Shown here: piece by piece, positions 9,816-41,768 of the stretch | How positions within the stretch are numbered: the stretch's first letter is position 1 | Layout: every line of letters begins with the position of its first letter | Sequence record: MK295204 | DNA from: Shigella phage vB_SdyM_006 | Length of the DNA stretch: 64,000 nucleotides | Strand: one strand, 5' to 3' | Translations under genes and position numbers: made by a program | Notes under the pieces: generated by a model | What the model was told of the DNA's origin: nothing | The model's input: only the letters and a program-made list of their open reading frames with translations | Databases searched by the model: none

Positions 9816-10820
9816 CTATTTTGTAATTAAATTGACCCAATCTTTTCGAATGAATTCTTGTATTTCTTTTTGAATAGATTTCTTGATTAATGCTGGGTCA
9901 TCGTAATCAAGAATATCATGCCCGTCTTTTAACATATCTTTTAAAACATCCTGCATCATTAGACCTTGAACTTTGCCAAAATCTTTTGAAGATATTTCGC
10001 CAACATGGCTAATCACATTAGATAAACGTTGTGCAGTGATATATGATGTAGAAAAATTAACCAGTTCTTGGTCGTCATTTGATAATTCTGGTGTAGGTCT
10101 AATTGTTTTTACTTTACCAGTTTCTTTGAACTTAGCATTTTTACATTTAAAAATTACACGGCTTTTATTATTGAACTGTGTTGGAGTAATAGGTTTAAGA
10201 ACATAACCTTCTGCAATATTTTCTGAACCTTCTTTTTGAGGACCAAATACGTGGGCATTTGCAGCCGGAATACCATGTTCTTTTACTATTGCATTAAATT
10301 CTGGGATTAAAGAATCAAATGAACGCTCTAAATTACTTAATTCATCAAAGTCACCAGTTAAAATAACAGGGCAGATTTTAAGATTTGTTTTAGAAGATAA
10401 CATTCTTAAAAATAAAGCATCTACTAAATCACCATTAATTAAAATATCAAATACCCAGAAATCTTTTTCTTCGTAATCTACTTCTCGTTGAATACCAGGG
10501 CCTGCATATTCGCCAAAGACTGTTAAAAGTTCTAAGTCAGGCATTGATTCTTTAACAGTATTAAACATGTCAAGAATGTTTTGTTTATAACGCTTTAAGA
10601 TTAATTCGTATCCAAAAAATGCTTCAGATTCACCAATAAGATTAGTTCGTTTTGCACAAACAACATCTACACCATCACAAATAAAACTAAAATTAGTCCC
10701 ATGTATTTTTTCTTGGGCAATCCAAGGAATACCTGGTGCTGTTTTTCCTTCAAAAAAGGCCTTTTCTACTAATTTAGTGTTATCAATATTTTCAATAGAA
10801 TCATATTTAATAAATTGCAT
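9816..10820 (-). CDS. rnlB: RNA ligase 2
   Basis: 334 aa; nucleotidyltransferase lysine motif KIHGTN, plus blocks GYVLKP and KCKN-KF and GKVQGLMMQDVL matching T4 Rnl2. Confidence 0.9.
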   Translation of the reverse strand: MQFIKYDSIENIDNTKLVEKAFFEGKTAPGIPWIAQEKIHGTNFSFICDGVDVVCAKRTNLIGESEAFFGYELILKRYKQNILDMFNTVKESMPDLELLTVFGEYAGPGIQREVDYEEKDFWVFDILINGDLVDALFLRMLSSKTNLKICPVILTGDFDELSNLERSFDSLIPEFNAIVKEHGIPAANAHVFGPQKEGSENIAEGYVLKPITPTQFNNKSRVIFKCKNAKFKETGKVKTIRPTPELSNDDQELVNFSTSYITAQRLSNVISHVGEISSKDFGKVQGLMMQDVLKDMLKDGHDILDYDDPALIKKSIQKEIQEFIRKDWVNLITK

Positions 10821-11156
10821 TTATACCTCAAACAATCGTATTTTAAGACTAGTTGTATATTTGATTTCTAAATTATAAACTTTACCACTATAAACAACAA
10901 GAATTTTATTTGGGTTTTCTTCACACCACATTATATTATCGTCATTAATAATGTTTAAAAATTCTAGCTCTGAATAACAAGCCCACGAGAATGATTTACT
11001 TAAAAACTCTTTTAAATCAAGCCAATCGGTTTCGTCACAAATAGCAGGACTCATAACAGCAAGTTTGTGGGTATATGTTTCTTTATCACACCAACGAGTA
11101 AAAAACACTTCACGTTTTTCTTCTAAAGGAATAACACCAGCAGTATACCAAGACAT
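10821..11156 (-). CDS. hypothetical protein (paralogue of next gene)
   Basis: C-terminal NKILVVYSGKVYNLEIKYT aligns with NSILVLYIGESTQLEVKFT of 11166..11450. Confidence 0.4.
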   Translation of the reverse strand: MSWYTAGVIPLEEKREVFFTRWCDKETYTHKLAVMSPAICDETDWLDLKEFLSKSFSWACYSELEFLNIINDDNIMWCEENPNKILVVYSGKVYNLEIKYTTSLKIRLFEV

Positions 11157-11165
11157 AATAATTCC

Positions 11166-11450
11166 TTATTTGATTGGGATGATTCTAAATTTGTATTCAC
11201 CGCCACGAGTAAATTTAACTTCTAACTGAGTTGATTCACCAATGTAAAGAACCAAAATTGAATTTTTATTAGAACGTAACCAGTCTTGATATTCTTCAAA
11301 AGACTTGCGTAAAGATGGGATGCTATTTTTATATCGGCCTAAAATAGTCCATGAGAATTCACCACTGCCCATCCATTTAGTGGAACGGTCATATTTTAAA
11401 AGGTTTTCAATATCAATATTTAACCATGTTTTAAAGTTTTCTTTAATCAT
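11166..11450 (-). CDS. hypothetical protein (paralogue of previous gene)
   Basis: 94 aa; shared C-terminal motif with 10821..11156. Confidence 0.4.
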   Translation of the reverse strand: MIKENFKTWLNIDIENLLKYDRSTKWMGSGEFSWTILGRYKNSIPSLRKSFEEYQDWLRSNKNSILVLYIGESTQLEVKFTRGGEYKFRIIPIK

Positions 11451-11650
11451 TTTCTTACCTTCATTCGTTTACGATAAACTACTTTTTCGCGAGTTTTAAA
11501 TTCCTTCTGTTTTTGTTCAACTTCAATATAAACAGAAGCCATTTCTTTAGCTGTTCCACCCATTTTTCTGGCTATATCAACAAAGTGCATACCTTGTTGT
11601 TTAAGAAAGTGGATTTTTATTTTATCATGATTTGTCATTATTTTCTTCAA
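11447..11650 (-). CDS. hypothetical small basic protein
   Basis: 67 aa ORF; 4-nt overlap with downstream gene. Confidence 0.35.
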   Translation of the reverse strand: MKKIMTNHDKIKIHFLKQQGMHFVDIARKMGGTAKEMASVYIEVEQKQKEFKTREKVVYRKRMKVRK

Positions 11651-11831
11651 AATCTTTACAGATATCCAAGAGTTTTTTGTTTAAAGCTTCAACAAATTCT
11701 GTAGCTGAATCAGGGTATTCGTTAAATAAATAACACAAATACTCACTATGTATTTCATGGGCCACTTGAGAAACCATAGTCTTAAGTTCTTTATTCATAT
11801 AATCACCTCTCAATAATGTGTATTCTATCAT
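11625..11831 (-). CDS. hypothetical protein
   Basis: 68 aa ORF; overlaps both neighbours by about 26-29 nt, so the true start may be internal. Confidence 0.3.
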   Translation of the reverse strand: MIEYTLLRGDYMNKELKTMVSQVAHEIHSEYLCYLFNEYPDSATEFVEALNKKLLDICKDFEENNDKS

Positions 11832-12237
11832 CTAAAATATCATTAAGCATAGGACCAATGACATCCCAATTTAAGCCACCATTAGAACACCCTGGTTTAG
11901 GCAGGAGAACTCTTTTAAAATTGTTATTAGATACTATCTCCATTAATTCTAATGCACTCTTACGTATCAGGTCTTTATCAGACTTGTTATACCAATCATG
12001 TTTAGTAGGAAATGATATTAAATTAATGTTATTATATTTCGTAAGAATTCTGCATACATGGCCGTATTGGATTAAGGATTTAGCCATGATTAAGTCTAAA
12101 TTAGGAACCTTCAACGAAAAGAGACGGGCAATTCCGGCTCCCATAACAGCTCTTTTATTTTTCTTGATATTCATGTTTGTTGTAATGCAAATAGCATCAC
12201 AAGGGATATCAAGAATATTTCCAGATACTATTTTCAT
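11803..12237 (-). CDS. macro-domain protein (ADP-ribose binding/hydrolase fold)
   Basis: 144 aa; N-terminal GNILD-x4-DAICITTN and glycine loop AVMGAGIA, C-terminal LLPKPGCSNGGL, resemble macro-domain signature loops. Confidence 0.55.
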   Translation of the reverse strand: MKIVSGNILDIPCDAICITTNMNIKKNKRAVMGAGIARLFSLKVPNLDLIMAKSLIQYGHVCRILTKYNNINLISFPTKHDWYNKSDKDLIRKSALELMEIVSNNNFKRVLLPKPGCSNGGLNWDVIGPMLNDILDDRIHIIER

Positions 12238-12656
12238 AAAGCTTCTTTTAAAACTTCTATAGCATGCTTAATTTCAAAAGGGATACCTTCTGATGGATGC
12301 TGGCGAATGTTATCGTCAATATGACTAAAATCCATGCCAATTACACGGACTTTATATTTTTGCTCACTATCAAATTCTGATATATTAGAACCCCAAGTGT
12401 TTGATGATGTAACTTCTTTAGTCTCAAAATAAGTACATCCACAATGACAATATTCGTGCCAAAAATCACAGTCTTTATCAAATAAAGGGTGGTCTTCGCG
12501 AAGAGTTAAATATACCGCATAACTCCAATCCGGACGACCATCATTAAATAAAGCTTTATAACTAGGTGGTAATCCTGTAAACCATGAAGTAACTTCAATA
12601 GCTTCGCCTTTCTTTTTATCTGCATGAACAGTGTATACATATTTTTGAATAGACAT
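12234..12656 (-). CDS. hypothetical protein with His/Cys cluster
   Basis: 140 aa; contains WHEYCHCGC (HExxH-like plus Cys cluster); start overlaps stop region of downstream macro gene by 4 nt. Confidence 0.45.
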   Translation of the reverse strand: MSIQKYVYTVHADKKKGEAIEVTSWFTGLPPSYKALFNDGRPDWSYAVYLTLREDHPLFDKDCDFWHEYCHCGCTYFETKEVTSSNTWGSNISEFDSEQKYKVRVIGMDFSHIDDNIRQHPSEGIPFEIKHAIEVLKEAL

Positions 12657-12854
12657 TTATTTTACCTCAATAATAGTGAGTTCAGTATCTTCTGTCAAAT
12701 CACAAAAGTCAAAAGCCAATGCAGCAATACCTGGGTATTCTGATTCGTCAATAATACATTCAGTATTATTATTTTTGATGTCTAAGGCTAATTGATAATT
12801 AGACGTAGTAAATCCAAGTTCAAGTTCTTCGCACCATACGGTATACTTTTTCAT
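12657..12854 (-). CDS. small protein, tandem paralogue A
   Basis: 65 aa; aligns along its length with 12855..13049 (VWCEE, GF-T--YQLA, C-terminal IEVK). Confidence 0.45.
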   Translation of the reverse strand: MKKYTVWCEELELGFTTSNYQLALDIKNNNTECIIDESEYPGIAALAFDFCDLTEDTELTIIEVK

Positions 12855-13049
12855 TTATTTTACCTCAATGAGTTCACAATCGTATAAACAACTACACAGT
12901 TCACAAAAAGAATAAGCCGATGCATATGAATCAGTGTCTATCCAAAACCCAAGATTATCAATAGCACCTTTACGAACTTCATAAGCAAGTTGATAATCAA
13001 CTGTTTCAAATCCAATTTTCTTTTCTTCGCACCATACTATATATTTCAT
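12855..13049 (-). CDS. small protein, tandem paralogue B
   Basis: 64 aa; paralogue of 12657..12854. Confidence 0.45.
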   Translation of the reverse strand: MKYIVWCEEKKIGFETVDYQLAYEVRKGAIDNLGFWIDTDSYASAYSFCELCSCLYDCELIEVK

Positions 13050-13894
13050 GAGTATTCCTTGTCATAATAAGAATCTGGAGTAAAAATATTTAACATATTT
13101 GTAGAATTATCAATAGTAATAATATTTTCCTGTTCAACTTCAGGTGTATAATATTTTAAAAACTCTTCTTTAACGTATTTTACTGGATCACTTTTATAAT
13201 CGTCAGTAGAAATATCAAATAATTCAATTGTATACGTATCAAGCCATTTTTCAGAACATGTTAATCGTCCACATAATAATCCATCATAAACGATAGCATA
13301 TTCAATATGGCCCCATTTATATGAGCTATCAGCGTCGTGTCTGATTAGATAAAACTTAATATCAGAATTCTCACAATCATCACTAATATTGTCACGAACA
13401 TCGTATTCATTGAGCTCGGTCAATTCACTTAAAGCATTAATAAACAGGTTTTTATATTGAGGGCCAGTTACTAACTTATCTTCTGTTAGTTCTTTCTCAA
13501 TAAATTCTTTTAAAGTTAAAACTGGCAATTCATACTTAGGAAATAATGCAGTTTCAGTAATAGTGCCGATATTCAATTCGGCCAATTTCTTAATAACAGA
13601 ATCTTCAGCTTTATCAGAATCAGTCCAAATATGAAGAACTTTAAAATTATGATTATTCCAAATTTTTTGTGGGTCAACATCAATCACATCTTGGGTTTTA
13701 GACAAAAACATTAAAAGGTAATCAGAATCATTCCACCCTACTGGGTTTTCGTATTTTTGAATGACTAGATATTGGAAATCAGTCATTAATGCATTATATC
13801 TTTCTTTAGAAGCTAAAGAAGTAGAATCCATAGATGAAGAAAAAGCTTCAATAACACTAGCTGGGTTTTTAATTAACATTTTGAATAGTCCCAT
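13046..13894 (-). CDS. hypothetical protein
   Basis: 282 aa ORF, no recognisable motif. Confidence 0.5.
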   Translation of the reverse strand: MGLFKMLIKNPASVIEAFSSSMDSTSLASKERYNALMTDFQYLVIQKYENPVGWNDSDYLLMFLSKTQDVIDVDPQKIWNNHNFKVLHIWTDSDKAEDSVIKKLAELNIGTITETALFPKYELPVLTLKEFIEKELTEDKLVTGPQYKNLFINALSELTELNEYDVRDNISDDCENSDIKFYLIRHDADSSYKWGHIEYAIVYDGLLCGRLTCSEKWLDTYTIELFDISTDDYKSDPVKYVKEEFLKYYTPEVEQENIITIDNSTNMLNIFTPDSYYDKEYS

Positions 13895-14115
13895 GTGATT
13901 TTAACACGATCATGATATATTACTCTATCATGGCTTTTTGAAACTGTAAATCCTTTTTCTTTAAGAATTTCAATCAACGCATCTTTAATGGCTTCATTTT
14001 CTGGAAGCTTTGCGTAATGCTCTGTACTATCATGCAAAGCCAGTTGGCAAATATCATTTAACACAATAGCTAAATTGTGTTCAACAACAGTATTTTTAAG
14101 ATCAGATAAATTCAT
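13873..14115 (-). CDS. hypothetical protein
   Basis: 80 aa ORF, first gene downstream of a putative minus-strand early promoter. Confidence 0.4.
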   Translation of the reverse strand: MNLSDLKNTVVEHNLAIVLNDICQLALHDSTEHYAKLPENEAIKDALIEILKEKGFTVSKSHDRVIYHDRVKITWDYSKC

Positions 14116-14149
14116 ATTATTCTCACAGTTGCGAATTGATGATGTGTAT

Positions 14150-14177
14150 ACTATATTATAAAATAGTGTTTGTAAAC
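14150..14177 (-). promoter_or_regulatory. putative divergent early promoter (GTTTAC-N16-TATAGT)
   Basis: GTTTAC on minus strand (plus 14172-14177) with TATAGT 16 nt downstream; weaker match. Confidence 0.3.
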
Positions 14178-14200
14178 ATCTAAAATAATTTAAAATAAAT

Positions 14201-14229
14201 GTTTACTTTTGCTGTCATTATGATATTAT
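14201..14229 (+). promoter_or_regulatory. T4-type early promoter (GTTTAC-N17-TATTAT)
   Basis: -35 GTTTAC 14201-14206, 17-nt spacer, -10 TATTAT 14224-14229; part of a conserved cassette. Confidence 0.6.
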
Positions 14230-14271
14230 ATACATATTGAAACGAAACATGAAAAACAAATGGAGTATATT

Positions 14272-14616
14272 ATGAATAAGACACAAATCAATGCAGTTTT
14301 AAAAACTTTAGGTTATGGTAATTTACGTTATTCTAATGGTAAAACATACCGCAGAGGAAACTCTATGGTTAAAGGTTTTCATTTAATTTCTACTGGTGCA
14401 TGTATGGTGACTTCACCAGAAACACAAAAATTTAGTGATCTTGTTAATGAGTTAAAACAACATTTTGAATTACAATCATATTATGACAATTGCATGGCAA
14501 TATTTGTGACAGGAAAATTAAAAATTGTTGTTTGTTTAACAAATTTTAATACATACGGTGGCTTAAACCCAGATTATAAAACATGGTTTGCATCTGTTAA
14601 TATTGAAAAGTTATAA
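14272..14616 (+). CDS. hypothetical protein, lone plus-strand gene in an accessory island
   Basis: Start placed at the second ATG, preceded by GGAGTATAT as in two other copies of the same promoter-leader cassette; own early promoter upstream and bidirectional terminator downstream. Confidence 0.5.
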   Translation: MNKTQINAVLKTLGYGNLRYSNGKTYRRGNSMVKGFHLISTGACMVTSPETQKFSDLVNELKQHFELQSYYDNCMAIFVTGKLKIVVCLTNFNTYGGLNPDYKTWFASVNIEKL

Positions 14617-14620
14617 AACA

Positions 14621-14645
14621 AAAATGGGACCGTAAGGTCCCATTT
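14621..14645. terminator. bidirectional terminator between plus-strand island gene and gene 54
   Basis: TGGGACC-GTAA-GGTCCCA flanked by A-run and T-run. Confidence 0.7.
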
Positions 14646-15560
14646 TCAAATTAATCTTGTTACAGCTCCTATTCCTCCTCCAGCACCACCTAATCTTGTT
14701 AAATTTCTTAATGAAGAGCTTAAAGAGTTTTCTTCTGAAATTGTATCTATGGCACCAATTGCTTTTGATTCTAACCAATCAAGAGCTGCTTGCCTACCGA
14801 CAGAACCTACCTGCATCACCCTGTATGCGAATGTAACATCAAAAACAGCAATAGTATTATTATCTTCATATGAAAGTTCAGGAGCACCTACCGACATAGG
14901 AACACACCCTGTGAACATGGCAACAGTATGTGGAAGACCGTTTCTATTGTGTAAATTAACCTGGATATCGGCTTCAACATCTATAGGTAAAGCACGTAGT
15001 CCTGTGATTGGGTCTTCAACTGAATTCACCCAATCTTGCATAGCTCGATAATTACTTGCTTCTGAATCCATCCTAAACGAAATTATCAACGGGTCATATT
15101 CTCTAGATAGAACTTTTATATTAGGTGAATTATGATTTTTATCCATCTCATAAGATAGTCTGTTTTCTGGTAATTTGACAGAATAAACCATTAACCCAGA
15201 TGTTGGAAATGCCATATTAAAGAAATCTAATAGATAAGTCCCTACTTCAAATTCTCCTAATAATGATTGAACCACACGATTAGACATGGCTCCTAAAAGA
15301 TATTTAGAAACACCAGATTTTCTCACTAGTTTTTGAGTACCAGCAACAACTAGACTTGATACTGCACTAGTTACATCATTTTGAGATATTCCAAGAAAAT
15401 CTGTATCTATAGGTAAATTGTTAAACAAAAAACCACCAAAATTATCTAAAAGCTCATTAGTTTTTGATGATGGGGCTGTGGCAAAAACAACACTAAACAT
15501 GTTTGTTCTTTGGAAGTCAAGATTGACAGCTTGGCTTTTAAATTCTTCTAATGTATACAT
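14646..15560 (-). CDS. 54: baseplate tail-tube junction protein
   Basis: 304 aa; last gene of the 51-27-28-29-48-54 hub series, matching T4 order and length (320 aa). Confidence 0.75.
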   Translation of the reverse strand: MYTLEEFKSQAVNLDFQRTNMFSVVFATAPSSKTNELLDNFGGFLFNNLPIDTDFLGISQNDVTSAVSSLVVAGTQKLVRKSGVSKYLLGAMSNRVVQSLLGEFEVGTYLLDFFNMAFPTSGLMVYSVKLPENRLSYEMDKNHNSPNIKVLSREYDPLIISFRMDSEASNYRAMQDWVNSVEDPITGLRALPIDVEADIQVNLHNRNGLPHTVAMFTGCVPMSVGAPELSYEDNNTIAVFDVTFAYRVMQVGSVGRQAALDWLESKAIGAIDTISEENSLSSSLRNLTRLGGAGGGIGAVTRLI

Positions 15561-16603
15561 TATAACAATCCTTCTGCAAACAAAGTTCCACGATTTAGTG
15601 TTAAAATCTCTCTAAACGTTATTTCAAGAGTAAACGTACTTGGTAAATTTGGGGCCATGGCTAGACCATTAAAATGTCCATTAGGAGATTTGTCAAATCT
15701 TATACTAGAAATCTGGGCTGGTCCAAATATATCAGTTCGGCCATCATAAGAAGATGTTTTACCAAAATTTCGTATAACCCATATTGTTGGGTTACTTACA
15801 ACAAGAACATTAGTTAAAAAACTTGTAATATTTTCCAATATTGTTCCTGAAGTATCAGCACCGTCTGGGGTATTAGGATTTATTAATGTTGTTTTATACC
15901 ATTCATCAATAGCGGCTTTAATTTCTTTAGCAAATTTAGACACACCTGTTTCACCATAAGAGAAATAACTAAATATTTCGTAAATATACAAAATTTGTAT
16001 AAGGTCTTGTGGAGTCCTTGGTGTTAAATGCCAGGTAAAAACTTTAGTTCTATTATCCGCTCCAGCATACATAGATCTAGCTGTAGTATAAATTTGTTCG
16101 CCTTTATCAGCCATAATTCCTTGTGTAATCGAATCTAATGCACCAAAAACAGCCGTTGACGCAACATTACTCAAAGCACCTGTTACGCTACCACCACCTT
16201 TAGTTAATAAAGAATCTCCAACATCATTAAATCTATGAGAAATGTTATCTACGTCAGATTGACTTCTTGGCATTAATATATTAGCAACAGATTCTTGACT
16301 AAAGGTGGTTGTCCCACCTTTTTTAGAAAAATCAATATTAATTGCGTCAACGGCATTTTGTTTTTTTCTAAAGTCTCTTAATGAGCCTGTATCGCGTGCA
16401 TTATAATTATATGCAGTAAATAACAGCCCGTTTTTATATAAGTCATTAAGTCTAAAATCTAAAGCATTATCTGTACCAGAGGCTCGTTCTGCTGGAAACT
16501 GAGCCACTAATGTTTTGGTTTGAGTATTTGTTGGATTAGAAGACCCAGCAGATATTTTTGTTCCTATTTTCTCTACTTCTTCATCCAGAACTTTTATTTT
16601 CAT
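15560..16603 (-). CDS. 48: baseplate tail-tube cap protein
   Basis: 347 aa; position between gp29 and gp54 as in T4 (364 aa). Confidence 0.75.
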   Translation of the reverse strand: MKIKVLDEEVEKIGTKISAGSSNPTNTQTKTLVAQFPAERASGTDNALDFRLNDLYKNGLLFTAYNYNARDTGSLRDFRKKQNAVDAINIDFSKKGGTTTFSQESVANILMPRSQSDVDNISHRFNDVGDSLLTKGGGSVTGALSNVASTAVFGALDSITQGIMADKGEQIYTTARSMYAGADNRTKVFTWHLTPRTPQDLIQILYIYEIFSYFSYGETGVSKFAKEIKAAIDEWYKTTLINPNTPDGADTSGTILENITSFLTNVLVVSNPTIWVIRNFGKTSSYDGRTDIFGPAQISSIRFDKSPNGHFNGLAMAPNLPSTFTLEITFREILTLNRGTLFAEGLL

Positions 16604-33614: not shown

Positions 33615-33623
33615 AGTAATTCC

Positions 33624-33869: not shown

Positions 33870-33900
33870 AGATGCCTCAAAAATGCGAGGTTAATATTTA

Positions 33901-33917: not shown

Positions 33918-33942
33918 CGGTTTAGAACACATGTTCATATAG

Positions 33943-34260: not shown

Positions 34261-34589
34261 TAAACCAACCTTAAAATGTCTTCATACTTCATAGAATTAA
34301 CAGAAATAATTGATTCTGTTGTAATAGAACGCCATGCATTAATCTCTGTATCAAATACTCGGATATATGATGGTGTTTTTGTTTCTTTTTCTGTTAAAGG
34401 TTTAGAACTATCTTGTTTAGGATGATGTTCTTCAGGAATAATATCATAATCTAGTGTACAGCGAATAACTCTAATAGAACCATCTTTTTTAGTAAAAACA
34501 ATTTCATTTTTACCATTATGTAGTAAGGTTTTAATTAAAGCAGTTAATTTAGCTTTTCTTTCTTCTGTAAGTTTCATTTTACACCACAA
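34260..34589 (-). CDS. conserved hypothetical protein
   Basis: 109 aa ORF between cd and gene 31. Confidence 0.45.
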   Translation of the reverse strand: MWCKMKLTEERKAKLTALIKTLLHNGKNEIVFTKKDGSIRVIRCTLDYDIIPEEHHPKQDSSKPLTEKETKTPSYIRVFDTEINAWRSITTESIISVNSMKYEDILRLV

Positions 34590-35125
34590 TAGTTAGTTAT
34601 AGTAGACCAATCAATATGATTGAGATTAGAACGCTCATATTTAATAACTTCAATTCCAGAATCTAATAAAATCTGGTCCCATCCAGGAACATTGCGATCA
34701 TATGTTTCTGCATAAACAAGTTTTTTAATACCAGATTGAGCAATCGCTTTAGCACAATCAGGACATGGCGATAATGTTACATACATTGTTCCGCCATCAA
34801 TAGAAATACCATTACGAGCAGCAAAAATAATTGCATTTAATTCTGCATGGATTTCATGTTTAGAAGACCATGCATTATGTTGCTCACGGAATTCCATATT
34901 TAATCCTGTAATAGTTTTAGGACGAGGACCTGGAACAATAATAGGTTTAGTCCAACCTTTTTCTGCTGCATGGTCGCAGCAATTGACGCCACCAGTAGGA
35001 GAACCATTATAACCAGTAGAAATGATTCTTCCACCTTTTTCAATAACAGCACCAACTTTCCAAGAAACACATTTAGATTCTTGAGAAATGATATAAGCAA
35101 GTTGGAGATATGTCGAAGCTTTCAT
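34574..35125 (-). CDS. cd: dCMP deaminase
   Basis: 183 aa; N-terminus MKASTYLQLAYIISQESKC-SWKVGAVIEK-GRIISTGYNGSP nearly identical to T4 Cd; zinc motifs HAELNAI and PCPDCAKAI. Confidence 0.93.
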   Translation of the reverse strand: MKASTYLQLAYIISQESKCVSWKVGAVIEKGGRIISTGYNGSPTGGVNCCDHAAEKGWTKPIIVPGPRPKTITGLNMEFREQHNAWSSKHEIHAELNAIIFAARNGISIDGGTMYVTLSPCPDCAKAIAQSGIKKLVYAETYDRNVPGWDQILLDSGIEVIKYERSNLNHIDWSTITNYCGVK

Positions 35126-35411
35126 TAGAACGATCCTCTATGTATTCTAAACATTTAGACGGAGTTTGAACCTGTACATCATAAGTATGGCTCTCATAAT
35201 TGAATTCTGCTTTAACAACATATTTTAAAGCATGTTCTGGGTCCATTAATTGAATTAATGTATGGATTGTTGATTTCAAATTTAATTGAAGTTTCCAATC
35301 GCATATCTCAAATAAATTATTTTTATGCCATTGTTCAATATACAAACGAAGAAACTCATCCAAATTTTCTGGAGATGCATGATTTAATTCTTTTACAACT
35401 TTAATACTCAT
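35073..35411 (-). CDS. hypothetical protein
   Basis: 112 aa ORF; 52-nt overlap with cd start in another frame. Confidence 0.35.
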   Translation of the reverse strand: MSIKVVKELNHASPENLDEFLRLYIEQWHKNNLFEICDWKLQLNLKSTIHTLIQLMDPEHALKYVVKAEFNYESHTYDVQVQTPSKCLEYIEDRSNESFDISPTCLYHFSRI

Positions 35412-35413
35412 TA

Positions 35414-35752
35414 TTATTCCTTAAGCATATACATATAAACTAAATAGGTTGTGTTTCTAGTTTTTACAATAGCTACTCTATCATCTAACATTTTAAAGCT
35501 CTTTACAGTAGATGTACTAACATAAGTTTCATCTTTAAATCGATTAGAAATATCACTGTAAATAAGTCCAGAAATACCAAATCTGGCTTCTAAATTAACT
35601 TCAAGAATATGCTCTAATTTATCAGACATTCGATGTCCGATAACAGCTAGAATAGCATCGCATGCACAAGCATTTCGAATAGAAGATAATTCAGATTCTT
35701 GGTTTTGCCCTATTTTATCTTCAATTGCGTTAATCAATTTTTCTGTTTTCAT
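35414..35752 (-). CDS. hypothetical protein
   Basis: 112 aa ORF immediately downstream of the DAHP synthase gene. Confidence 0.45.
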   Translation of the reverse strand: MKTEKLINAIEDKIGQNQESELSSIRNACACDAILAVIGHRMSDKLEHILEVNLEARFGISGLIYSDISNRFKDETYVSTSTVKSFKMLDDRVAIVKTRNTTYLVYMYMLKE

Positions 35753-36723
35753 TATAAGTCCACAATTAATTGTGCAGTGTCAAAGATATCAATACAAGGA
35801 TCTGTAATTGATACACCCCATAAAAGATTATCGGAAATCTTTTGATTACCTTCTATTAAATTACTTTCAATCATAAGCCCAAAAGTATTTTTAGCTTTAA
35901 TTGCTTCTTTAGCTACATTAATTTGGTTTTTAAAATTACCTTCACAATTAGCGTGTGAGCAGTCAACCATAACTGGAATCTCTAAAGACTCAATATATTC
36001 TTTAGAATAATTAGTTTTATATTCTTTACCGATTTTACCACCACGTAAAATAATATGCGTATTTAGATTTCCACTTGCATAGATTTTACTAATCACGCCA
36101 TCCATATTAATACCTAAATACGAATGTGGAAAAGCTGAACTCTTCATAGCATCTAATGCTACTTGAATATCACCTGATGTTGAATTTTTAAATCCAACGG
36201 CCATAGGCAGCCCAGAAGCTATTTCACGATGAGTCTGTGATTCTGTTGTTCTAGCGCCGATAGCAGTCCAACTAAAAATACCAGATAGATACTTAATAGT
36301 AAATGGGTCTAAGACCTCTGTCGCCAAAGGAAGCCCAAGATTCAATAGTTCTATGCATAAGTGACGAGCAATTCTTAACCCTTCATCCATGTTAAACGAA
36401 CCATTTAATTCAGGGTCATTAACAAGTCCTTTCCAACCTACGGTTGTACGTGGCTTTTCAAAATAGACCCGCATTACTAAAAGACATTTATCACCAATAT
36501 GGTTTTGTAATCTTTTTAAATACTGCCCGTAAATGACCGCTTGTGCTGGGTCATGAATAGAACAAGGCCCAACAACGATCAGTTTTTTAGAACTCACGCC
36601 AGAAATAATATCTTTAACTTCTTGGCGATGATTTTCCACTTGTTGCTTTAATTCATCAGAAATTGGCAACTCATCATGTAGCTCTTGTGGTGTGCTAATA
36701 GTTTTAACGTGCATGGATATCAT
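35752..36723 (-). CDS. 3-deoxy-D-arabino-heptulosonate 7-phosphate (DAHP) synthase, class I (AroG-like)
   Basis: 323 aa; collinear with E. coli AroG: VVGPCSIHD, MRVYFEKPRTTVGWKGL, GARTTESQTHRE-ASGL, HIILRGG, DCSHAN, ESNLIEGNQ, SITDPCI; all four AroG metal ligands (Cys, His, Glu, Asp) conserved. Confidence 0.88.
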   Translation of the reverse strand: MISMHVKTISTPQELHDELPISDELKQQVENHRQEVKDIISGVSSKKLIVVGPCSIHDPAQAVIYGQYLKRLQNHIGDKCLLVMRVYFEKPRTTVGWKGLVNDPELNGSFNMDEGLRIARHLCIELLNLGLPLATEVLDPFTIKYLSGIFSWTAIGARTTESQTHREIASGLPMAVGFKNSTSGDIQVALDAMKSSAFPHSYLGINMDGVISKIYASGNLNTHIILRGGKIGKEYKTNYSKEYIESLEIPVMVDCSHANCEGNFKNQINVAKEAIKAKNTFGLMIESNLIEGNQKISDNLLWGVSITDPCIDIFDTAQLIVDL

Positions 36724-36964
36724 ATTCCTCTGAATGGATTAAATGAGTATCATCTTCGATTTTTAACCATAACGTTAATTTAAAAATACCTAAACGACAA
36801 CTGATATCCCATTCAACATCTGATTTAAATAGTGTTTTGAAAATACGATTGACCTGATAAACAATAGCTTCATCAGTAGAAGCATAATCAGAACACATGG
36901 AAATTACGCCTTGAGCCATATCTGATATTGATAATTGCTTAGGAACTTTGTATACATTACACAT
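36704..36964 (-). CDS. hypothetical protein
   Basis: Start set at internal ATG preceded by GGAGA (MCNVYK...), about 86 aa. Confidence 0.35.
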   Translation of the reverse strand: MCNVYKVPKQLSISDMAQGVISMCSDYASTDEAIVYQVNRIFKTLFKSDVEWDISCRLGIFKLTLWLKIEDDTHLIHSEEYDIHAR

Positions 36965-37163
36965 AAAGAATTCTCCAAGTATATCCACCTTCTGGATATT
37001 CACCAATAATAAAATATTGAATACCTTTTGGCGATTCAACTGTTACTAAAACTTCATTAATAAACCCAGAATTAATAGTATTGTGTGAGTTTAAAGTTAC
37101 AGTTGAATCAACTATTTTTTCTGAGAGAGCTTTTGCAAACTCTCTAACTTTATTTTTAAACAT
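36957..37163 (-). CDS. hypothetical protein
   Basis: 68 aa ORF. Confidence 0.35.
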   Translation of the reverse strand: MFKNKVREFAKALSEKIVDSTVTLNSHNTINSGFINEVLVTVESPKGIQYFIIGEYPEGGYTWRILYV

Positions 37164-37168
37164 TATAA

Positions 37169-37360
37169 TTAACCTAAGTTTAAAACAACTTTTTTAATTT
37201 CGCAATCAGGGCCGAAACGAGTATCTATTGCATCTTTAGCTTCTTTGAATGATTTGTACAAACACAAATGTTCTTCTCGTTTTCGTGTAAAGATTCCTTG
37301 CGAAATAGAAATACCTTGAATCATAAAAGTATTTTTACGAAAAATTGCAAATAATTCCAT
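37169..37360 (-). CDS. hypothetical protein
   Basis: 63 aa ORF abutting pnk stop. Confidence 0.35.
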   Translation of the reverse strand: MELFAIFRKNTFMIQGISISQGIFTRKREEHLCLYKSFKEAKDAIDTRFGPDCEIKKVVLNLG

Positions 37361-38358
37361 TAAAAGTCACCTCTATTAACTTGCCAGCACTCAAGTCCAA
37401 GAACTCGCCACATATCAACTACTTGTTGACGGTCATCTAAAACATAAAGAACATTATACCTATTTGCAATGTGTTTGTAAAACAATTCTTTCTTAACAAT
37501 AGAATCTTTTCTATGATCTTTATGACTACGCATAATAAGCTTAGAATATTTTACGCCGTGTTTGTTAAGCCATTTTTCGGTCCCAATACGATGCTCTTTT
37601 TCTTCACCTTCTTCGCGTCCAGATGTTAATAATATCTCAACACCTAAATCATGCATCATATTAATATGATTAATAACATTTTGACGAGGTGTATCTTTCC
37701 ATAATTTATACAGGTCATGTGGGCTACGATGATTGTTGTCAGCAATAGTTCCATCAATATCAACAATAATAGCTTTAGGCAAATCTAAAGTCTTAGACCA
37801 ATCAGGAACACCATGCAAGTAATGTTGCATTTTTTCATAAAACGAATAAATTACTGCTGGAGGAACTGCTGATTCTCCACGGTACAAGTTTCGTTTATAT
37901 AGTGTTTCTAAGTCTTCATCAAAATAAACCCAATCAAGCTGGTATTTAAAGGTTTTAGCAATATCTTTCCATTTATCTCGTGTTTTTGGATTTAAGTTTG
38001 TGTCTGACACAATAACAATGCGATGACCAGATTTATTAAGCCATTCAACTGCGAGCAATTGCTGTTTATCTGTAACTTCTCGCTCACGTTGTTTTGATGG
38101 CTTATATTCATTACGCTTGCAATTAAATAGTTCACAGCGTAAATCATCACGATTAACATTTAGAACAATACCTGGATTAGCAGATACCATTTCTTCAGCC
38201 CAAGTAGATTTACCAGAACCTGGTGCACCAACTGTCATAATAATTTGTTTTACAAATTCTTCTTTTGGTTTTGGAATATCATAACCCATGTACTTAAGAA
38301 CCTGTTCATTTTCAATATTAACCCAAGTAATATCATCACTTTGCATTGGTACAAACAT
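37360..38358 (-). CDS. pseT: polynucleotide 5'-kinase / 3'-phosphatase
   Basis: 332 aa; P-loop GAPGSGKST, HAD motif IIVDIDGTIA, C-terminal VDMWRVLGLECWQV-RGDF matching T4 Pnk. Confidence 0.93.
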   Translation of the reverse strand: MFVPMQSDDITWVNIENEQVLKYMGYDIPKPKEEFVKQIIMTVGAPGSGKSTWAEEMVSANPGIVLNVNRDDLRCELFNCKRNEYKPSKQREREVTDKQQLLAVEWLNKSGHRIVIVSDTNLNPKTRDKWKDIAKTFKYQLDWVYFDEDLETLYKRNLYRGESAVPPAVIYSFYEKMQHYLHGVPDWSKTLDLPKAIIVDIDGTIADNNHRSPHDLYKLWKDTPRQNVINHINMMHDLGVEILLTSGREEGEEKEHRIGTEKWLNKHGVKYSKLIMRSHKDHRKDSIVKKELFYKHIANRYNVLYVLDDRQQVVDMWRVLGLECWQVNRGDF

Positions 38359-38533
38359 AATAATCCTTATTCTTTAATCAAAGAATTCATAAATTCGATA
38401 AAAGCTTCACGTGCATCATTGAGTTGCTCAGCCGTTTTATTATATTCGTCGTAATCAGTCACATGTCTAAGAGATGTTCCTAATTGTTCGAATTGGCTAA
38501 ACAACCCATATAAAATATGAAACTCTAGAGGAG

Positions 38534-39247
38534 TCATTTTAATTCCTGCTCAATTTTGTCAATGATTGCATAAATTTCATGTTTAACTGGAGTAACGGTT
38601 TTACCTGATTTTTTAAACAACTTAGAAGCTTCTTCAGGATTTGTTTTATACAATTTTTTAGCTTCTTCTTTGATGATAGTGGCTTCTTCAACTGCAGACA
38701 TAAGTTCTTTAAGCTTTTTACGAAGATCTTCGATATCATTATTACATGGAACAAAATCTTTTTCTAAAATCATAAAACGATGCCATTGAGTAACAGAAAT
38801 TGGGTCAGTTAATTTAAAATCTGATATTTCTGTTTTACCAGGAATAATGATATCATTATCAGTCTCAGCAACTTTGACTACAACATGAGTCACTTTGTCA
38901 TCTTCAATAGTTGGAATAAACCGAGGTCTTAAATCAGGATTTGCCTTTTTAGTAGAATGCAAAGAAGCAAATCGTTTAAACCGAGTATCTGTAATACTAT
39001 GGACAAACGAAGCATCATTAAGCATATATACGTTCTGGTCATCTTCAAGAATGTGCACATCACCTGGGAGATGTAACATATATCCTGACGATGAAGCAGG
39101 GCTAGAATTGAAACCTGGTAAATGATTAACTTCAGAATAATCGATCTTAAAAAGACCATCAGATCTTCGTGTTGCATTGACAGTAATAGGGAACACAATA
39201 CCTGCCATGCTTGCAAAACCATTATGGCTTGTTAATTTAATTTTCAT
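38534..39247 (-). CDS. hypothetical protein (shares N-terminal motif with next gene)
   Basis: 237 aa; N-terminal F-x-S-x2-GI-x-FPI-x-V-x-AT motif shared with 39250..39471. Confidence 0.5.
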   Translation of the reverse strand: MKIKLTSHNGFASMAGIVFPITVNATRRSDGLFKIDYSEVNHLPGFNSSPASSSGYMLHLPGDVHILEDDQNVYMLNDASFVHSITDTRFKRFASLHSTKKANPDLRPRFIPTIEDDKVTHVVVKVAETDNDIIIPGKTEISDFKLTDPISVTQWHRFMILEKDFVPCNNDIEDLRKKLKELMSAVEEATIIKEEAKKLYKTNPEEASKLFKKSGKTVTPVKHEIYAIIDKIEQELK

Positions 39248-39249
39248 AA

Positions 39250-39471
39250 TTATTCCTCTATAACTGAAAACTCACGTGGTGTAAAATAATAAGAATCTGT
39301 TGATGCGGATTTGTCAAATCCTTTTAATTTAATGAACTGAGATTGGGCAACGTTGATACAAGCGCTGTTATCACAATCAGGTGTAGCATAGACTTCAATA
39401 GGAAACTGAATACCTTCTAAAGAAGTAAACCTGCCATCACATAATATTTTTACTTTTATCATAATTTTCAC
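39250..39471 (-). CDS. hypothetical protein (paralogous N-terminal motif)
   Basis: 73 aa. Confidence 0.4.
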   Translation of the reverse strand: MKIMIKVKILCDGRFTSLEGIQFPIEVYATPDCDNSACINVAQSQFIKLKGFDKSASTDSYYFTPREFSVIEE

Positions 39472-39745
39472 ACTTAGGTTCGTTTAAGTCAACACGGTAA
39501 TAACATACCATAGTTTTCATTTGTTGTAAATATCTTTTTACATCTTCAAGCCAAATTCTTAAATCTTGAGAGTCTTTATAAGATAAAGCAACTTGTGGGC
39601 CGTCTTTATTAATGACTTTCCATTTTACATCTAATGGCTGAACAGGAGCTGGCCATTGTGGATGGATTTTAGGCACTTCCTGTGGTGCAGGAACAACGCT
39701 ATTGCACCCGGTTAATAACATAATAGGAATTATCAGATGTTTCAT
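39437..39745 (-). CDS. o-spanin (outer-membrane lipoprotein)
   Basis: Signal peptide ending in lipobox LLTGC, proline-rich N-terminal region; overlaps i-spanin gene by 4 nt. Confidence 0.7.
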   Translation of the reverse strand: MKHLIIPIMLLTGCNSVVPAPQEVPKIHPQWPAPVQPLDVKWKVINKDGPQVALSYKDSQDLRIWLEDVKRYLQQMKTMVCYYRVDLNEPKCENYDKSKNIM

Positions 39746-40101
39746 TTCGTTTCCTCTACAACACTATCAGTGAACTTTTTAAACGAATTATTAATAAGTT
39801 TAGACACTAGTCCAGGTTTAGATTCAACGATATGTTCACGAGCTGCATCTTTTTTTAGTTTATAAGTTATGCTATTGGTTTCCGTCTGAATAGAACTAAA
39901 CTTATCGTTTAAAGCGTTGTATTGCTTTATTTGATTATTAAGTTTTTCTTTATAATCATCAAATTCTGTATTAAGCTTTTGTAGTGCTTTTTCTGTTTGA
40001 TCTAGTTTTGTTGCATTTTCTGTGTATAAATGGAATAATACCCCATTACTCAAAATAAGAACAAGACCAATAACTAAATAAATTTTTGTGTTCATTGACA
40101 C
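39742..40101 (-). CDS. i-spanin (inner-membrane, coiled-coil)
   Basis: N-terminal hydrophobic helix IYLVIGLVLILSNGVLFHL followed by coiled-coil-like periplasmic region; translationally coupled to o-spanin. Confidence 0.7.
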   Translation of the reverse strand: MSMNTKIYLVIGLVLILSNGVLFHLYTENATKLDQTEKALQKLNTEFDDYKEKLNNQIKQYNALNDKFSSIQTETNSITYKLKKDAAREHIVESKPGLVSKLINNSFKKFTDSVVEETK

Positions 40102-40592
40102 ACCTTAAAAATTGTGTTAATGATGTCGTCAGAAGATAATCCTCTGAATAGAATATGATTTCTTGATGTTGAAGAACTACAGGAAAAAGAAGGGATTAAA
40201 GAAGCCATATCATCGTATGTTAGTTCTTTATGCATAATACCAAGTTGGTGTTTTTCATAAATCGGGTCAACGATAATATAGCATTTATGGCCATTGATAT
40301 GAACATTAGGCTGTGAAATATTAATAAAGACCTCTGCATCAGTGTTAGCTAAATAACTTTCTAAAAATGACTTCATTTCTTGAACAGCTTCAGGTAATTT
40401 TTCGCGTCGTTCTTCAGAAACACGATTATTATATTCTTTTTGTTTGAGTGATTTAGATTTATTACGACCTAAAGCTGCTCTTAAATCAGACAAATAGCCT
40501 ACGCGTTTAGAGCCTTTCCAAACAGATAACCCATCATGACGGTCTCCAAAAGAAGCCACTACCATATCATTTGTAATTAGTTGTAAATCCAT
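40092..40592 (-). CDS. hypothetical protein (position and size of T4 alc)
   Basis: 166 aa vs 167 aa for T4 Alc; positional inference only. Confidence 0.4.
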   Translation of the reverse strand: MDLQLITNDMVVASFGDRHDGLSVWKGSKRVGYLSDLRAALGRNKSKSLKQKEYNNRVSEERREKLPEAVQEMKSFLESYLANTDAEVFINISQPNVHINGHKCYIIVDPIYEKHQLGIMHKELTYDDMASLIPSFSCSSSTSRNHILFRGLSSDDIINTIFKVCQ

Positions 40593-40649
40593 GTTAACCT
40601 CTCATTTTCAAATTTGTCTTACTATATTATAAAAATGAGAGGTTGTAAA

Positions 40650-41768
40650 CTACTTTTTATATACTTCTGGGATAAAAAATGTGTAGTATTTAACAAATAG
40701 ATCGTTTAAACATGATAATAATACGTCATAGTCAAATCCATTATACATTTTCATATAGGCAGAAAACACTTGTGGCACGCCTGCTTTATTGAATTCTGTC
40801 TGACCATTGATTGCGTAGTCTTTTCGATCTTTTCCAAGATTTGCTTCATAAACCATTTTAACAGATTCAACTTGGTCATGAATAGCTTGAGTATAGACTT
40901 CTTCAAAGGCTTTAATTTTTTCTAAAGATTCTTGGTCATTTGCAAATAATGATTTCAAATCGTCAGAGGTTCCTTCTACAATTGCTTTAAAAAGGTCTTC
41001 ATTTGAAGTAATAGAATCTTTTGTTCTGTGTAAAGAAACATAAGCATAACTTTTTACTTTAAATTTAGTCCCATCAGACATCTGAGCAACAACGCCTTCA
41101 ATACCTTGTGATTCATAAACACGCTCTACCCAACCTTCTTCAGGTTCGTATCTAGTAACCAAAATTGGTCTTAATTCTTTAATTGCTTTTAAAGAGTCAT
41201 AATCAATATATTCGCCGGTTTCATTATGACGAGCATTTAACAAGATTAAAGCTGGCTCAGAGTATTTAAGAACAATACGATTTGTTGGTGCAACATATTC
41301 AAAATTAAAAGTGTACTCAGGGTTATCTTTAATCACTTTCCTAACTTCAGAATACATTTCACTATTGATTAGTTTACATGCCTCTAGAGCCTGTTCTGAG
41401 CTAATAGAACCTTTAGATTTTAGATAAACGAACCCGTCAACAAGATAAGAACTAATTAATGAGCCGTCAGCTTTATCCATGAGATATTCTACTTTAGAAA
41501 GATCTAAATCCATTGTCATAGGATTTTCGTTTAAATTAAAAAACTTTTCCATAGGTCTAGAAAGAACTTTGACTGGATTATTATCTTTATCAAGTTCAAA
41601 CATAATACCACGACATTCTAAAGCATCTGGCAATAACCAATCTGAATATGAAGCATAATTATAATTAAAAATCCTTCCTTTTTTATCTATACTCAAATTT
41701 ACGTCATTATAGAAAAACTTTGTTCTATCATACTCGCATAAAGCCATCAAATTGTCAAATAGTTTCAT
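40650..41768 (-). CDS. rnlA: RNA ligase 1
   Basis: 372 aa vs 374 in T4; nucleotidyltransferase motif KADG (KxDG) and position upstream of denA. Confidence 0.8.
   Translation of the reverse strand: MKLFDNLMALCEYDRTKFFYNDVNLSIDKKGRIFNYNYASYSDWLLPDALECRGIMFELDKDNNPVKVLSRPMEKFFNLNENPMTMDLDLSKVEYLMDKADGSLISSYLVDGFVYLKSKGSISSEQALEACKLINSEMYSEVRKVIKDNPEYTFNFEYVAPTNRIVLKYSEPALILLNARHNETGEYIDYDSLKAIKELRPILVTRYEPEEGWVERVYESQGIEGVVAQMSDGTKFKVKSYAYVSLHRTKDSITSNEDLFKAIVEGTSDDLKSLFANDQESLEKIKAFEEVYTQAIHDQVESVKMVYEANLGKDRKDYAINGQTEFNKAGVPQVFSAYMKMYNGFDYDVLLSCLNDLFVKYYTFFIPEVYKK

Follow-up and report, generated by a model that had tools for sequence, protein, structure and literature searches.

RNA ligase 1, RNA ligase 2 and polynucleotide kinase-phosphatase in a Proteus Bragavirus: probable orthologs of the T4 RNA-repair enzymes

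RESULTS

The window carries three T4-type RNA-repair genes

The window, the 64 000-nt stretch of DNA analysed here, comes from a Bragavirus (Straboviridae) phage of Proteus. It encodes RNA ligase 2 (Rnl2), polynucleotide kinase-phosphatase (Pnk) and RNA ligase 1 (Rnl1). These are very likely orthologs of T4 rnlB, pseT and rnlA that reached this Proteus phage by vertical descent, and each is probably active. Their joint presence is real, ordinary and already known, the usual annotated state for the T4-like family. The three genes are minus-strand open reading frames (ORFs), listed here with the elements discussed below.

9816–10820, minus strand: rnlB, RNA ligase 2, 334 aa (PF09414, PF18043, TIGR02307, PDB 2HVQ, T4 identity, phiP4-3 annotation)
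10692–10709, minus strand: Rnl2 motif I, K-I-H-G-T-N; K38 is the predicted adenylylation nucleophile (T4 K35), flanked by the signature residues E37 and N43 (T4 E34 and N40)
37360–38358, minus strand: pseT, polynucleotide 5'-kinase/3'-phosphatase, 332 aa (PF25109, PF13671, 1LTQ, T4 identity, phiP4-3 annotation with the same start)
37747–37764, minus strand: Pnk HAD motif I, V-D-I-D-G-T; D200 nucleophile (T4 D165) and D202 (T4 D167), invariant in alignment A2
38206–38229, minus strand: Pnk P-loop, GAPGSGKS; K50 and S51 (T4 K15 and S16), invariant in alignment A2
38254–38358, minus strand: Bragavirus-specific N-terminal extension of Pnk, 35 residues (match starts, annotated starts)
40650–41768, minus strand: rnlA (gene 63), RNA ligase 1 and tail-fibre attachment catalyst, 372 aa (PF09511, PF20819, TIGR02308, 2C5U, T4 identity, phiP4-3 annotation)
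40653–41021, minus strand: Rnl1 C-terminal domain, residues 250–372 (T4_Rnl1_C; tRNA-repair specificity in T4)
41460–41474, minus strand: Rnl1 motif I, K-A-D-G-S; K99 is the predicted adenylylation nucleophile (T4 K99, in K-E-D-G-S)

The window is 97–99% identical to Proteus phage phiP4-3 (MG696114 / NC_055737), with nucleotide identities of 97.6% around rnlB and 99.4% around rnlA-pseT, and represents a slightly different isolate of a near-identical phage. The phiP4-3 counterparts of Rnl2, Pnk and Rnl1 (phiP43_097, _048 and _041) share 99.7, 99.4 and 99.7% protein identity with them and agree with them in length and start. In the phiP4-3 record they are labelled RNA ligase 2, 3'-phosphatase/5'-polynucleotide kinase and RNA ligase 1/tail-fibre attachment catalyst. 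An earlier, sequence-only reading of this DNA had listed the set as known biology. The limits given there, 9816 and 41768, coincide exactly with the outer ends of the Rnl2 and Rnl1 ORFs. The trio is not one unit: 2.3 kb separates Rnl1 from Pnk, and Rnl2 is found 26.5 kb away in a region of structural genes. Some 50 other, unrelated genes occupy the 32-kb span 9816–41768, among them those for baseplate proteins, DNA ligase, Alt, UvsW and Hoc.

The presence of all three enzymes, as the sequence-only reading had proposed, is agreed upon by motifs, Pfam/NCBIfam matches and T4 structures, with E-values of 1e-18 to 1e-138 for the family and structure matches; chance does not account for family assignments of this strength. 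The closest solved structures are the T4 enzymes themselves (Rnl2, 2HVQ, 8e-80; Pnk, 1LTQ, 1e-67; Rnl1, 2C5U, 2.5e-109), to which pairwise alignment gave identities of 44.8, 44.9 and 50.9%, respectively. KIHGTN, GAPGSGKS, VDIDGT and KADGS were each found once in the expected ORF, and alignment to T4, the check suggested with that reading, confirmed the active-site lysines and the P-loop. A second K-x-D-G-S match (34476–34490) falls in an unrelated ORF and was dismissed as a chance match.

The identity and synteny of the genes, the retention of catalytic residues and the action of purifying selection were observed directly, and by analogy with T4 the three proteins are probably all active enzymes. 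Computed against PM2 or Pm5461 orthologs, dN/dS was 0.13 for Rnl2, 0.11 for Pnk and 0.09 for Rnl1, these values being rough because dS is near saturation (about 1.0). At about 0.1, the Rnl1 tRNA-specificity domain included, they indicate that the genes are functional.

Rnl2 retains its motifs despite three replacements

Rnl2 matches the Pfam families RNA_ligase (PF09414, 2.7e-21) and T4_Rnl2_C (PF18043, 7.8e-18, residues 245–322), and scores 232.2 bits against the NCBIfam equivalog TIGR02307 (cut-off 197.15), with residues 3–332 of 334 covered. Its predicted domains are an adenylyltransferase and an Rnl2-specific C-terminal domain, the latter presumed necessary for sealing, and by family it would be a nick-sealing ligase. 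The motif residues conserved with T4, including the family signature E-K-x-H-G-x-N around the motif I lysine (E37, K38, H40, N43, E104, F124, D125, E204, K209, K225 and K227), are invariant across a nine-sequence alignment (A1), as are the retained C-domain equivalents of T4 R266 and D292. We know of no defined in vivo role for Rnl2.

Pairwise alignment found 19 of the 22 T4 residues checked to be conserved, the replacements being Q36 for R33, A135 for D135 and T155 for R155. Nandakumar and colleagues reportedly showed in 2004 that D135 and R155 are essential in the T4 enzyme. R33 is essential for adenylyltransferase activity of T4 Rnl2, in a role described as fold-stabilising rather than catalytic (PMC1807946). 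Because three residues reported as essential from alanine scanning of the T4 enzyme are replaced, Rnl2 could be read as a decaying or inactive copy, an explanation that we consider very improbable. The same positions vary among natural orthologs in A1: Pm5461 has Q and a Vibrio phage has L at R33, four other phages carry T, V, C or Y at R155, and at D135 the Proteus phages retain the neighbouring D134. Also against decay, every nucleotidyltransferase motif residue is invariant together with R266 and D292, the TIGR02307 equivalog cut-off is passed, and the gene is under purifying selection (dN/dS 0.13).

Pnk has two intact catalytic domains and an N-terminal extension

Pnk matches HAD_PNKP (PF25109, 5.5e-57; 192 bits against a cut-off of 27.6) and AAA_33 (PF13671, 2.5e-18). 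All T4 Pnk active-site residues checked by pairwise alignment are conserved (17/17), among them the kinase residues K50, S51, D71, R74 and R160 (in T4, the Walker A pair K15 and S16, the general base D35 and the RNA/ATP-binding R38 and R126) and the counterparts of the T4 phosphatase residues D165 and D167 of the D-x-D-x-T motif and their partners R176, S211, R213, D254, K258, D277 and D278.

The N-terminus departs from the family pattern: T4 Pnk and the family profile open directly with the first kinase beta-strand, and the window protein has 35 extra residues before it. Matches from all other phages start at query residues 28–44, mostly 35–39, and the annotated starts in five other phages agree that the extension is absent there. 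Alignments to the PHROG 505 profile and to 1LTQ both begin at residue 37. In PM2 the frame of the extension is preserved, and a Shine-Dalgarno sequence precedes M1; its dN/dS is 0.16. AlphaFold2 gave residues 1–33 a pLDDT below 50, and a PHROG search with the extension returned no match. The extension is probably a decoration that affects neither catalytic domain, and is the sole unusual feature of the RNA-repair genes.

Rnl1 and the question of what maintains it

Rnl1 matches T4_Rnl1_C (PF20819, 7.2e-42, residues 250–370) and RNA_lig_T4_1 (PF09511, 7.5e-20), and reaches 461.5 bits against the NCBIfam equivalog TIGR02308 (cut-off 242.25) over residues 2–370 of 372. It keeps T4 K99, R54, K75, F77, D101, G102, K119, E159, E227, G228, K240, K242 and Y246, and differs from T4 among the checked residues only at two non-essential motif I positions. 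Mutational work from the Shuman laboratory is said to have identified R54, K75, F77, G102, K119, E227, G228, K240 and K242 as essential in T4 Rnl1.

Rnl1 and Pnk might be kept mainly for roles outside defence, with tRNA repair at most a secondary benefit, a possibility that we entertain though we lean against it. Rnl1 would then be retained as gp63, the promoter of tail-fibre attachment, and Pnk would phosphorylate RegB-made 5'-OH ends, leading to degradation of early mRNAs by host RNases E and G. Several observations fit. First, on E. coli K-12 the N-terminal domain of T4 rnlA is intolerant of transposon insertions and the C-terminal domain tolerant (bioRxiv 10.1101/2025.11.20.689424). Second, Pnk acts in RegB-initiated mRNA decay in T4 (PMC3014915), and near-identical phiP4-3 encodes a RegB homolog (36% identity, E 4e-26). 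Lastly, PHROG files the Rnl1 family under 'tail'. T4 RNA-ligase-1 mutants grow normally on K-12, unlike on restrictive prr+ hospital strains (PMC3014915). However, the Rnl1 C-terminal domain, dispensable for T4 on K-12 and tRNA-specific in T4, is under purifying selection in this lineage (dN/dS 0.12 for the domain alone, against PM2), which argues that selection still acts on repair of RNA or tRNA. For a T-even PseT ortholog, moreover, the fitness effects seen in clinical E. coli isolates depend on the host strain. Vertical inheritance with tRNA repair and a non-defence function are not mutually exclusive.

A proposed healing-and-sealing pathway

Under vertical inheritance, we postulate that Pnk and Rnl1 form one healing-and-sealing pathway. 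The substrate would be cut RNA, classically a tRNA anticodon loop, with 2',3'-cyclic phosphate and 5'-OH ends. The Pnk HAD phosphatase domain (D200/D202) would take off the 3' phosphate, the P-loop kinase domain (K50, D71, R74, R160) would phosphorylate the 5'-OH, and Rnl1 would reseal the loop through a K99-AMP intermediate, directed to tRNA by its C-terminal domain. Rnl2 (K38), located apart beside head genes as in T4, would seal 3'-OH/5'-PO4 nicks in duplex RNA. The tRNA pathway is documented in T4, where Pnk and Rnl1 repair PrrC-cut tRNA-Lys (PMC3014915), and the sequence-only reading had cited this biology correctly. By analogy with T4, tRNA may be the in vivo substrate here and counter-defence a role.

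The gene set as a proposed indicator of host defence

From the same set, the sequence-only reading had gone on to conclude that the host range includes strains with tRNA-targeting defence; its gene identities, intact active sites and T4 biology stand, but this host-range step is not supported. That the full set is a specific adaptation signalling PrrC-like defence in Proteus hosts is, in our judgement, unlikely. The trio is intact and under purifying selection, and T4 offers a precedent (PMC3014915). However, the trio is the default in T4-like phages of Escherichia, Klebsiella, Shigella, Enterobacter, Acinetobacter, Aeromonas, Yersinia and others. Per host-genus label, Rnl1 and Rnl2 match counts are close to those of the major capsid protein gp23 (gp23/Rnl1/Rnl2: Escherichia 671/638/557, Klebsiella 332/287/278, Shigella 88/82/78, Enterobacter 58/56/55). 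Since most T4-like phages carry the trio whatever the host genus, its presence reflects family inheritance and holds almost no host-specific information. In T4, Rnl1 and Pnk also have the other roles described above.

Of the prr/stp circuit (host PrrC and phage Stp together with Pnk and Rnl1), Pnk and Rnl1 are both present in the window, and tblastn with the Stp query, only 26 aa long, gave no credible match in the window or in phiP4-3 positions 1–112 500 (the 112.5 kb in scope, the remaining 55 kb lying outside it). Stp, a peptide made by the phage, acts both as an inhibitor of the type Ic restriction enzyme and as the trigger of PrrC. Its best match (E 0.077) lies inside the DNA ligase ORF and was rejected, and its syntenic slot in phiP4-3, the ndd-gene 52 interval, is only 54 nt long and empty. 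In the literature searched, neither PrrC nor RloC was linked to Proteus, and no part for Rnl2 in PrrC counter-defence was described. Beyond Vibrio, the SXT/R391 mobile element family circulates also in Proteus and Providencia. In favour of a host-defence signal, prrC-bearing type I R-M cassettes occur on SXT/R391-family ICE of Vibrio alginolyticus (PMC4857294); against it, PrrC is rare even within E. coli, where some hospital strains carry it (PMC3014915). The intact trio therefore says little about which hosts this phage infects.

Comparison with phage T4

The order of the three genes is that of T4, and a leftward early-gene block, nrdB-denA-rnlA-alc-spanins-...-pseT-...-cd, is common to both phages. 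Rnl1 occupies the same slot, between denA and alc. Pnk, like T4 PseT, lies downstream of alc and the spanin genes and upstream of cd, although the window adds a 237-aa ORF upstream of it and a DAHP synthase gene further downstream. Rnl2 neighbours gene 24 in both phages; in the window rnlB is separated from gene 24 by a DprA-like gene and two small ORFs.

At the protein level, Rnl2 and its T4 counterpart (gp24.1, RnlB; 2HVQ) are both 334 aa long and share motifs I, III, IIIa, IV and V and the C-terminal domain. Pnk has the same two-domain layout as T4 PseT (1LTQ), a P-loop kinase and a HAD phosphatase. Rnl1 has 372 residues compared to 374 in T4 (gp63, RnlA; 2C5U/5TT6), with KADG in motif I in place of KEDG, and its C-terminal domain has diverged further from T4 (38.7% identity) than its N-terminal domain has (57.2%). 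In T4 this all-helical C-terminal domain confers tRNA-repair specificity; the domain is present in the window Rnl1, where by analogy it may do the same.

RNA ligase 2, Pnk and RNA ligase 1 are T4-type enzymes encoded by three separate genes

A six-frame motif scan of the window (79 ORFs of at least 100 aa; G+C content about 31%) placed each of the four motifs named in the sequence-only reading once, in the expected ORF and on the minus strand. The host ORFs are those of RNA ligase 2 (Rnl2, gene rnlB), the polynucleotide 5'-kinase/3'-phosphatase (Pnk, gene pseT) and RNA ligase 1 (Rnl1, gene rnlA or 63). An extra K-x-D-G-S match at 34476–34490 falls within a small, unrelated ORF; we dismissed it as a chance match.

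Features of the three genes (motifs from the six-frame scan)
9816–10820, minus, Rnl2 ORF, 334 aa
10692–10709, minus, Rnl2 motif KIHGTN
37360–38358, minus, Pnk ORF, 332 aa
37747–37764, minus, Pnk HAD motif VDIDGT
38206–38229, minus, Pnk P-loop GAPGSGKS
38254–38358, minus, 35-residue Pnk extension, seen only in Bragavirus phages
40650–41768, minus, Rnl1 ORF, 372 aa
41460–41474, minus, Rnl1 motif KADGS

Pfam resolved the Rnl2 ORF into RNA_ligase and T4_Rnl2_C, the Pnk ORF into AAA_33 and HAD_PNKP (the latter at 192 bits) and the Rnl1 ORF into RNA_lig_T4_1 and T4_Rnl1_C. Both ligases passed their NCBIfam equivalog cut-offs: Rnl2 for TIGR02307 (Rnl2 family, 232 bits versus 197) and Rnl1 for TIGR02308 (T4 RnlA family, 461 bits versus 242). 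The top solved structures were the T4 enzymes themselves, matched end to end (Rnl2 with 2HVQ, 8e-80; Pnk with 1LTQ, 1e-67; Rnl1 with 2C5U, 2.5e-109), and global identities to the T4 proteins of NC_000866 were 44.8, 44.9 and 50.9%, respectively. Motifs, Pfam domains, equivalog cut-offs and structure matches agree that the three RNA-repair enzymes are present.

The genes are already known and annotated in a near-identical public genome, that of phiP4-3 (MG696114/NC_055737; Straboviridae, Bragavirus; host Proteus penneri), which is 99.4% identical over the rnlA–pseT region and 97.6% over the rnlB region. It carries, at the same boundaries, 'RNA ligase 2', '3'-phosphatase, 5'-polynucleotide kinase' and 'RNA ligase 1 and tail fiber attachment catalyst'. 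Each region is also ~77–82% identical to two other Proteus Bragaviruses, PM2 and Pm5461. Over the rnlA–pseT block (36500–42500) identity to Proteus phage SJ_PmiM is 98.1%, against only 76.8% around rnlB (9000–11500), a mosaic that suggests recombination between Bragavirus lineages.

The 32-kb 'feature' of the sequence-only reading is bounded merely by the outer edges of the Rnl2 and Rnl1 ORFs. Rnl1 and Pnk share one leftward block, 2.3 kb from each other, and Rnl2 is 26.5 kb off, with about 50 unrelated genes between (baseplate, DNA ligase, Alt, UvsW, Hoc and others); these are therefore three separate genes and no single locus. The gene order matches that of T4, where rnlA likewise has denA on one side and alc on the other, pseT follows two spanin genes and precedes cd, and rnlB adjoins the head-vertex gene 24.

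Active sites are conserved

We mapped residues from structural and mutational work on T4 onto pairwise alignments. The active-site lysines and the P-loop, whose loss had been named as telling against the sequence-only reading, are all present. Pnk keeps 17 of 17 T4 active-site residues (T4 numbering), in the kinase domain (K15, S16, D35, R38, D85, R122, R126) and the phosphatase domain (D165, D167, T169, R176, S211, R213, D254, K258, D277, D278). Rnl1 keeps K99, R54, K75, F77, D101, G102, S103, K119, E159, R182, E227, G228, K240, K242, Y246 and D272/D273, and differs from T4 only at the non-essential motif positions T98 (D here) and E100 (A here; KADG instead of KEDG). Rnl2 keeps Y5, K35, H37, T39, K54, R55, F65/F66, E99, Q106, F119, D120, S170, E204, K209, K225, K227, R266 and D292, together with the signature residues E34 and N40.

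Three Rnl2 positions differ from T4 (R33 to Q36, D135 to A135 and R155 to T155), and their substitution might be taken to inactivate the enzyme, since T4 Rnl2 is reported to require R33; the role of this residue is thought to be fold-stabilising, not catalytic (PMC1807946). In an alignment of nine Rnl2 orthologs from six host genera, both Proteus Bragaviruses have Q at the R33 position and a Vibrio phage has L; several phages carry T, V, C or Y at the R155 position, and the Proteus phages retain an aspartate one position ahead of D135. The motif residues are all invariant. Because natural orthologs vary at these positions while the motifs do not, we do not read the changes as inactivation.

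Codon-level comparison, of Pnk and Rnl1 with PM2 and of Rnl2 with Pm5461, gave dN/dS values of 0.11 for Pnk, 0.09 for Rnl1 and 0.13 for Rnl2, and of 0.12 for the Rnl1 C-terminal domain, which confers tRNA specificity in T4; all are approximate, with dS of ~1 near saturation, and clearly indicate purifying selection. The description of the set as 'retained' is thus justified (dN/dS 0.09–0.13).

A Bragavirus-specific extension of Pnk

Pnk matches outside Bragavirus all begin at query residues 28–44, mostly 35–39, and residue 37 is where both the PHROG 505 profile and 1LTQ start to align. The 35 extra residues here are confirmed by the annotated starts in the five other phage Pnks with an annotated CDS. 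A downstream start would remove the extension, and M5, M24 and M41 are available; M5 and M24 are not conserved in PM2, and M41 would truncate the first beta-strand. The conserved TAAGGA Shine-Dalgarno sequence ahead of M1, present in PM2 where the internal methionines are not, also opposes it, and the PM2 extension is in frame with 22 of 35 residues identical. We therefore rejected a downstream start. AlphaFold2, run on a nine-sequence alignment, modelled the two catalytic domains with the expected fold (mean pLDDT 79) and gave residues 1–33 no confident structure (pLDDT <50).

No homolog or family match of the extension was detectable outside Bragavirus. Its approximate dN/dS of 0.16 suggests purifying selection. 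That it is a functional add-on, a docking or regulatory peptide, is a tentative and rather doubtful suggestion from sequence. Such an add-on could alter oligomerisation, target a partner or substrate, or shield the enzyme from a host inhibitor, and the T4 repair enzyme would then exist here in a lineage-specific form.

Neighbouring genes

No extra repair component was recognised beside the three genes: neither a 237-aa ORF upstream of pnk nor the 111-aa ORFs next to rnlB and pnk match any Pfam family, and their PHROGs are all of unknown function. The window contains no tRNA genes. Other neighbours are as follows.

8808–9371, minus, DprA-like ORF just downstream of rnlB (phrog_768, 9e-57)
11803–12237, minus, 144-aa macro-like ORF
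11816–12262, antisense to and overlapping the macro-like ORF, 148 aa, probably spurious
35752–36723, minus, full-length DAHP synthase between pseT and cd (Pfam DAHP_synth_1, 6e-67)
38534–39247, minus, the 237-aa ORF (phrog_20482) between the spanin genes and pnk, where T4 has only the small pseT.1

The macro-like ORF has a weak, below-cut-off Macro-domain match (Pfam E 2.4e-4) and a match to phrog_335 'phosphatase' (1.6e-25), and it faintly resembles T4 Tk.4, an anti-DarTG2 macrodomain recently given the name AdfM. The ORF is a candidate ADP-ribose-removing counter-defence gene; we considered it as a repair enzyme and judged an ADP-ribose-removing, AdfM-like factor more likely. DAHP synthase, which catalyses the first step of the shikimate pathway and is here an auxiliary metabolic gene, has been annotated before in phiP4-3 and PM2 and is lacking from the T4 pseT–cd interval. 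Directly downstream of its pnk, PM2 carries a homing endonuclease that the window lacks. The rnlB/DprA-like adjacency recurs in the annotations of Klebsiella phage Mineola and Escherichia phage Lw1, and T4 lacks it. The literature examined assigned Rnl2 no part in the PrrC pathway; the conserved DprA-like neighbour might bear on what Rnl2 does in vivo.

The gene set is a poor guide to host defences

By analogy with T4, a nuclease cut would leave 2',3'-cyclic phosphate and 5'-OH ends. The Pnk HAD domain (nucleophile D200, with D202) would remove the 3' phosphate and its P-loop kinase domain (K50, S51, D71, R74, R160) would add the 5' phosphate. Rnl1 (K99-AMP), which its C-terminal domain would direct to tRNA, would then reseal the break, and Rnl2 (K38-AMP) is predicted to seal nicks in duplex RNA.

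The sequence-only reading took the complete set as a sign of hosts with tRNA-targeting defence. We searched 50,697 phage records, counting those that span at least 80% of the query, and found matches to Pnk in 2084, to Rnl1 in 1559 and to Rnl2 in 1431.

Matching records per host-genus label; the count for gp23 (major capsid protein) serves as a rough denominator
Escherichia: gp23 671, Rnl1 638, Rnl2 557
Klebsiella: gp23 332, Rnl1 287, Rnl2 278
Shigella: gp23 88, Rnl1 82, Rnl2 78
Enterobacter: gp23 58, Rnl1 56, Rnl2 55
Acinetobacter: gp23 71, Rnl1 69, Rnl2 92
Aeromonas: gp23 86, Rnl1 77, Rnl2 46

The set is the norm among T4-like phages of proteobacteria, and one more carrier therefore says almost nothing about the hosts of that phage. 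In T4, moreover, both enzymes of the pathway are multifunctional. In a transposon study on E. coli K-12, the N-terminal domain of T4 rnlA (gp63) was insertion-intolerant and the C-terminal domain tolerant (bioRxiv 10.1101/2025.11.20.689424), and T4 Pnk phosphorylates RegB-cut mRNAs, enabling their decay by RNases E and G (PMC3014915). A RegB homolog is found in phiP4-3, outside the window (36% identity, E 4e-26; L021:47959–48378, L021 and L022 being phiP4-3 sequence stretches).

PrrC itself is limited to some E. coli hospital strains, with orthologs reported in 19 distantly related bacteria (PMC3014915). Stp, the T4 trigger peptide, had no credible match in either the window or 112.5 kb of phiP4-3, a negative that carries little weight, Stp being only 26 residues long; the syntenic stp slot of phiP4-3, between ndd and gene 52 (L022:1018–1073), is a 54-nt terminator hairpin without stp or ac. 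The eight phiP4-3 tRNA genes (L021:36786–38331) are Arg, Tyr, Met, Pro, Gly, Asp, Ser and Glu, with no tRNA-Lys, and in the same phage a 148-aa ORF annotated 'RNA ligase' (L021:32260–32706) adjoins the gp57A chaperone gene; all of these fall outside the window. A literature search gave no connection between Proteus and either PrrC or RloC. The SXT/R391 family of ICEs circulates in Proteus too. In Vibrio, a prrABCD cassette is carried on an SXT/R391-type ICE (PMC4857294).

The sequence-only interpretation is thus only partly supported: enzyme identity and the T4 mechanism are right, and the step to a host range with tRNA-targeting defence over-reached, the set being family-wide and multifunctional. 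The host-defence inference is not established, and we caution that such a gene set is no marker of a particular phage's host defence repertoire. For Proteus phage therapy, anticodon-nuclease-type defences that leave cyclic-phosphate and 5'-OH ends are predicted probably to be countered. Beyond correct annotation the genes have little significance: they are ordinary, intact, vertically inherited RNA-repair genes of T4 type. They probably represent the canonical T4 healing-and-sealing enzymes kept in working order, as in most T4-like phages, with the 35-residue Pnk extension as the one non-standard detail.
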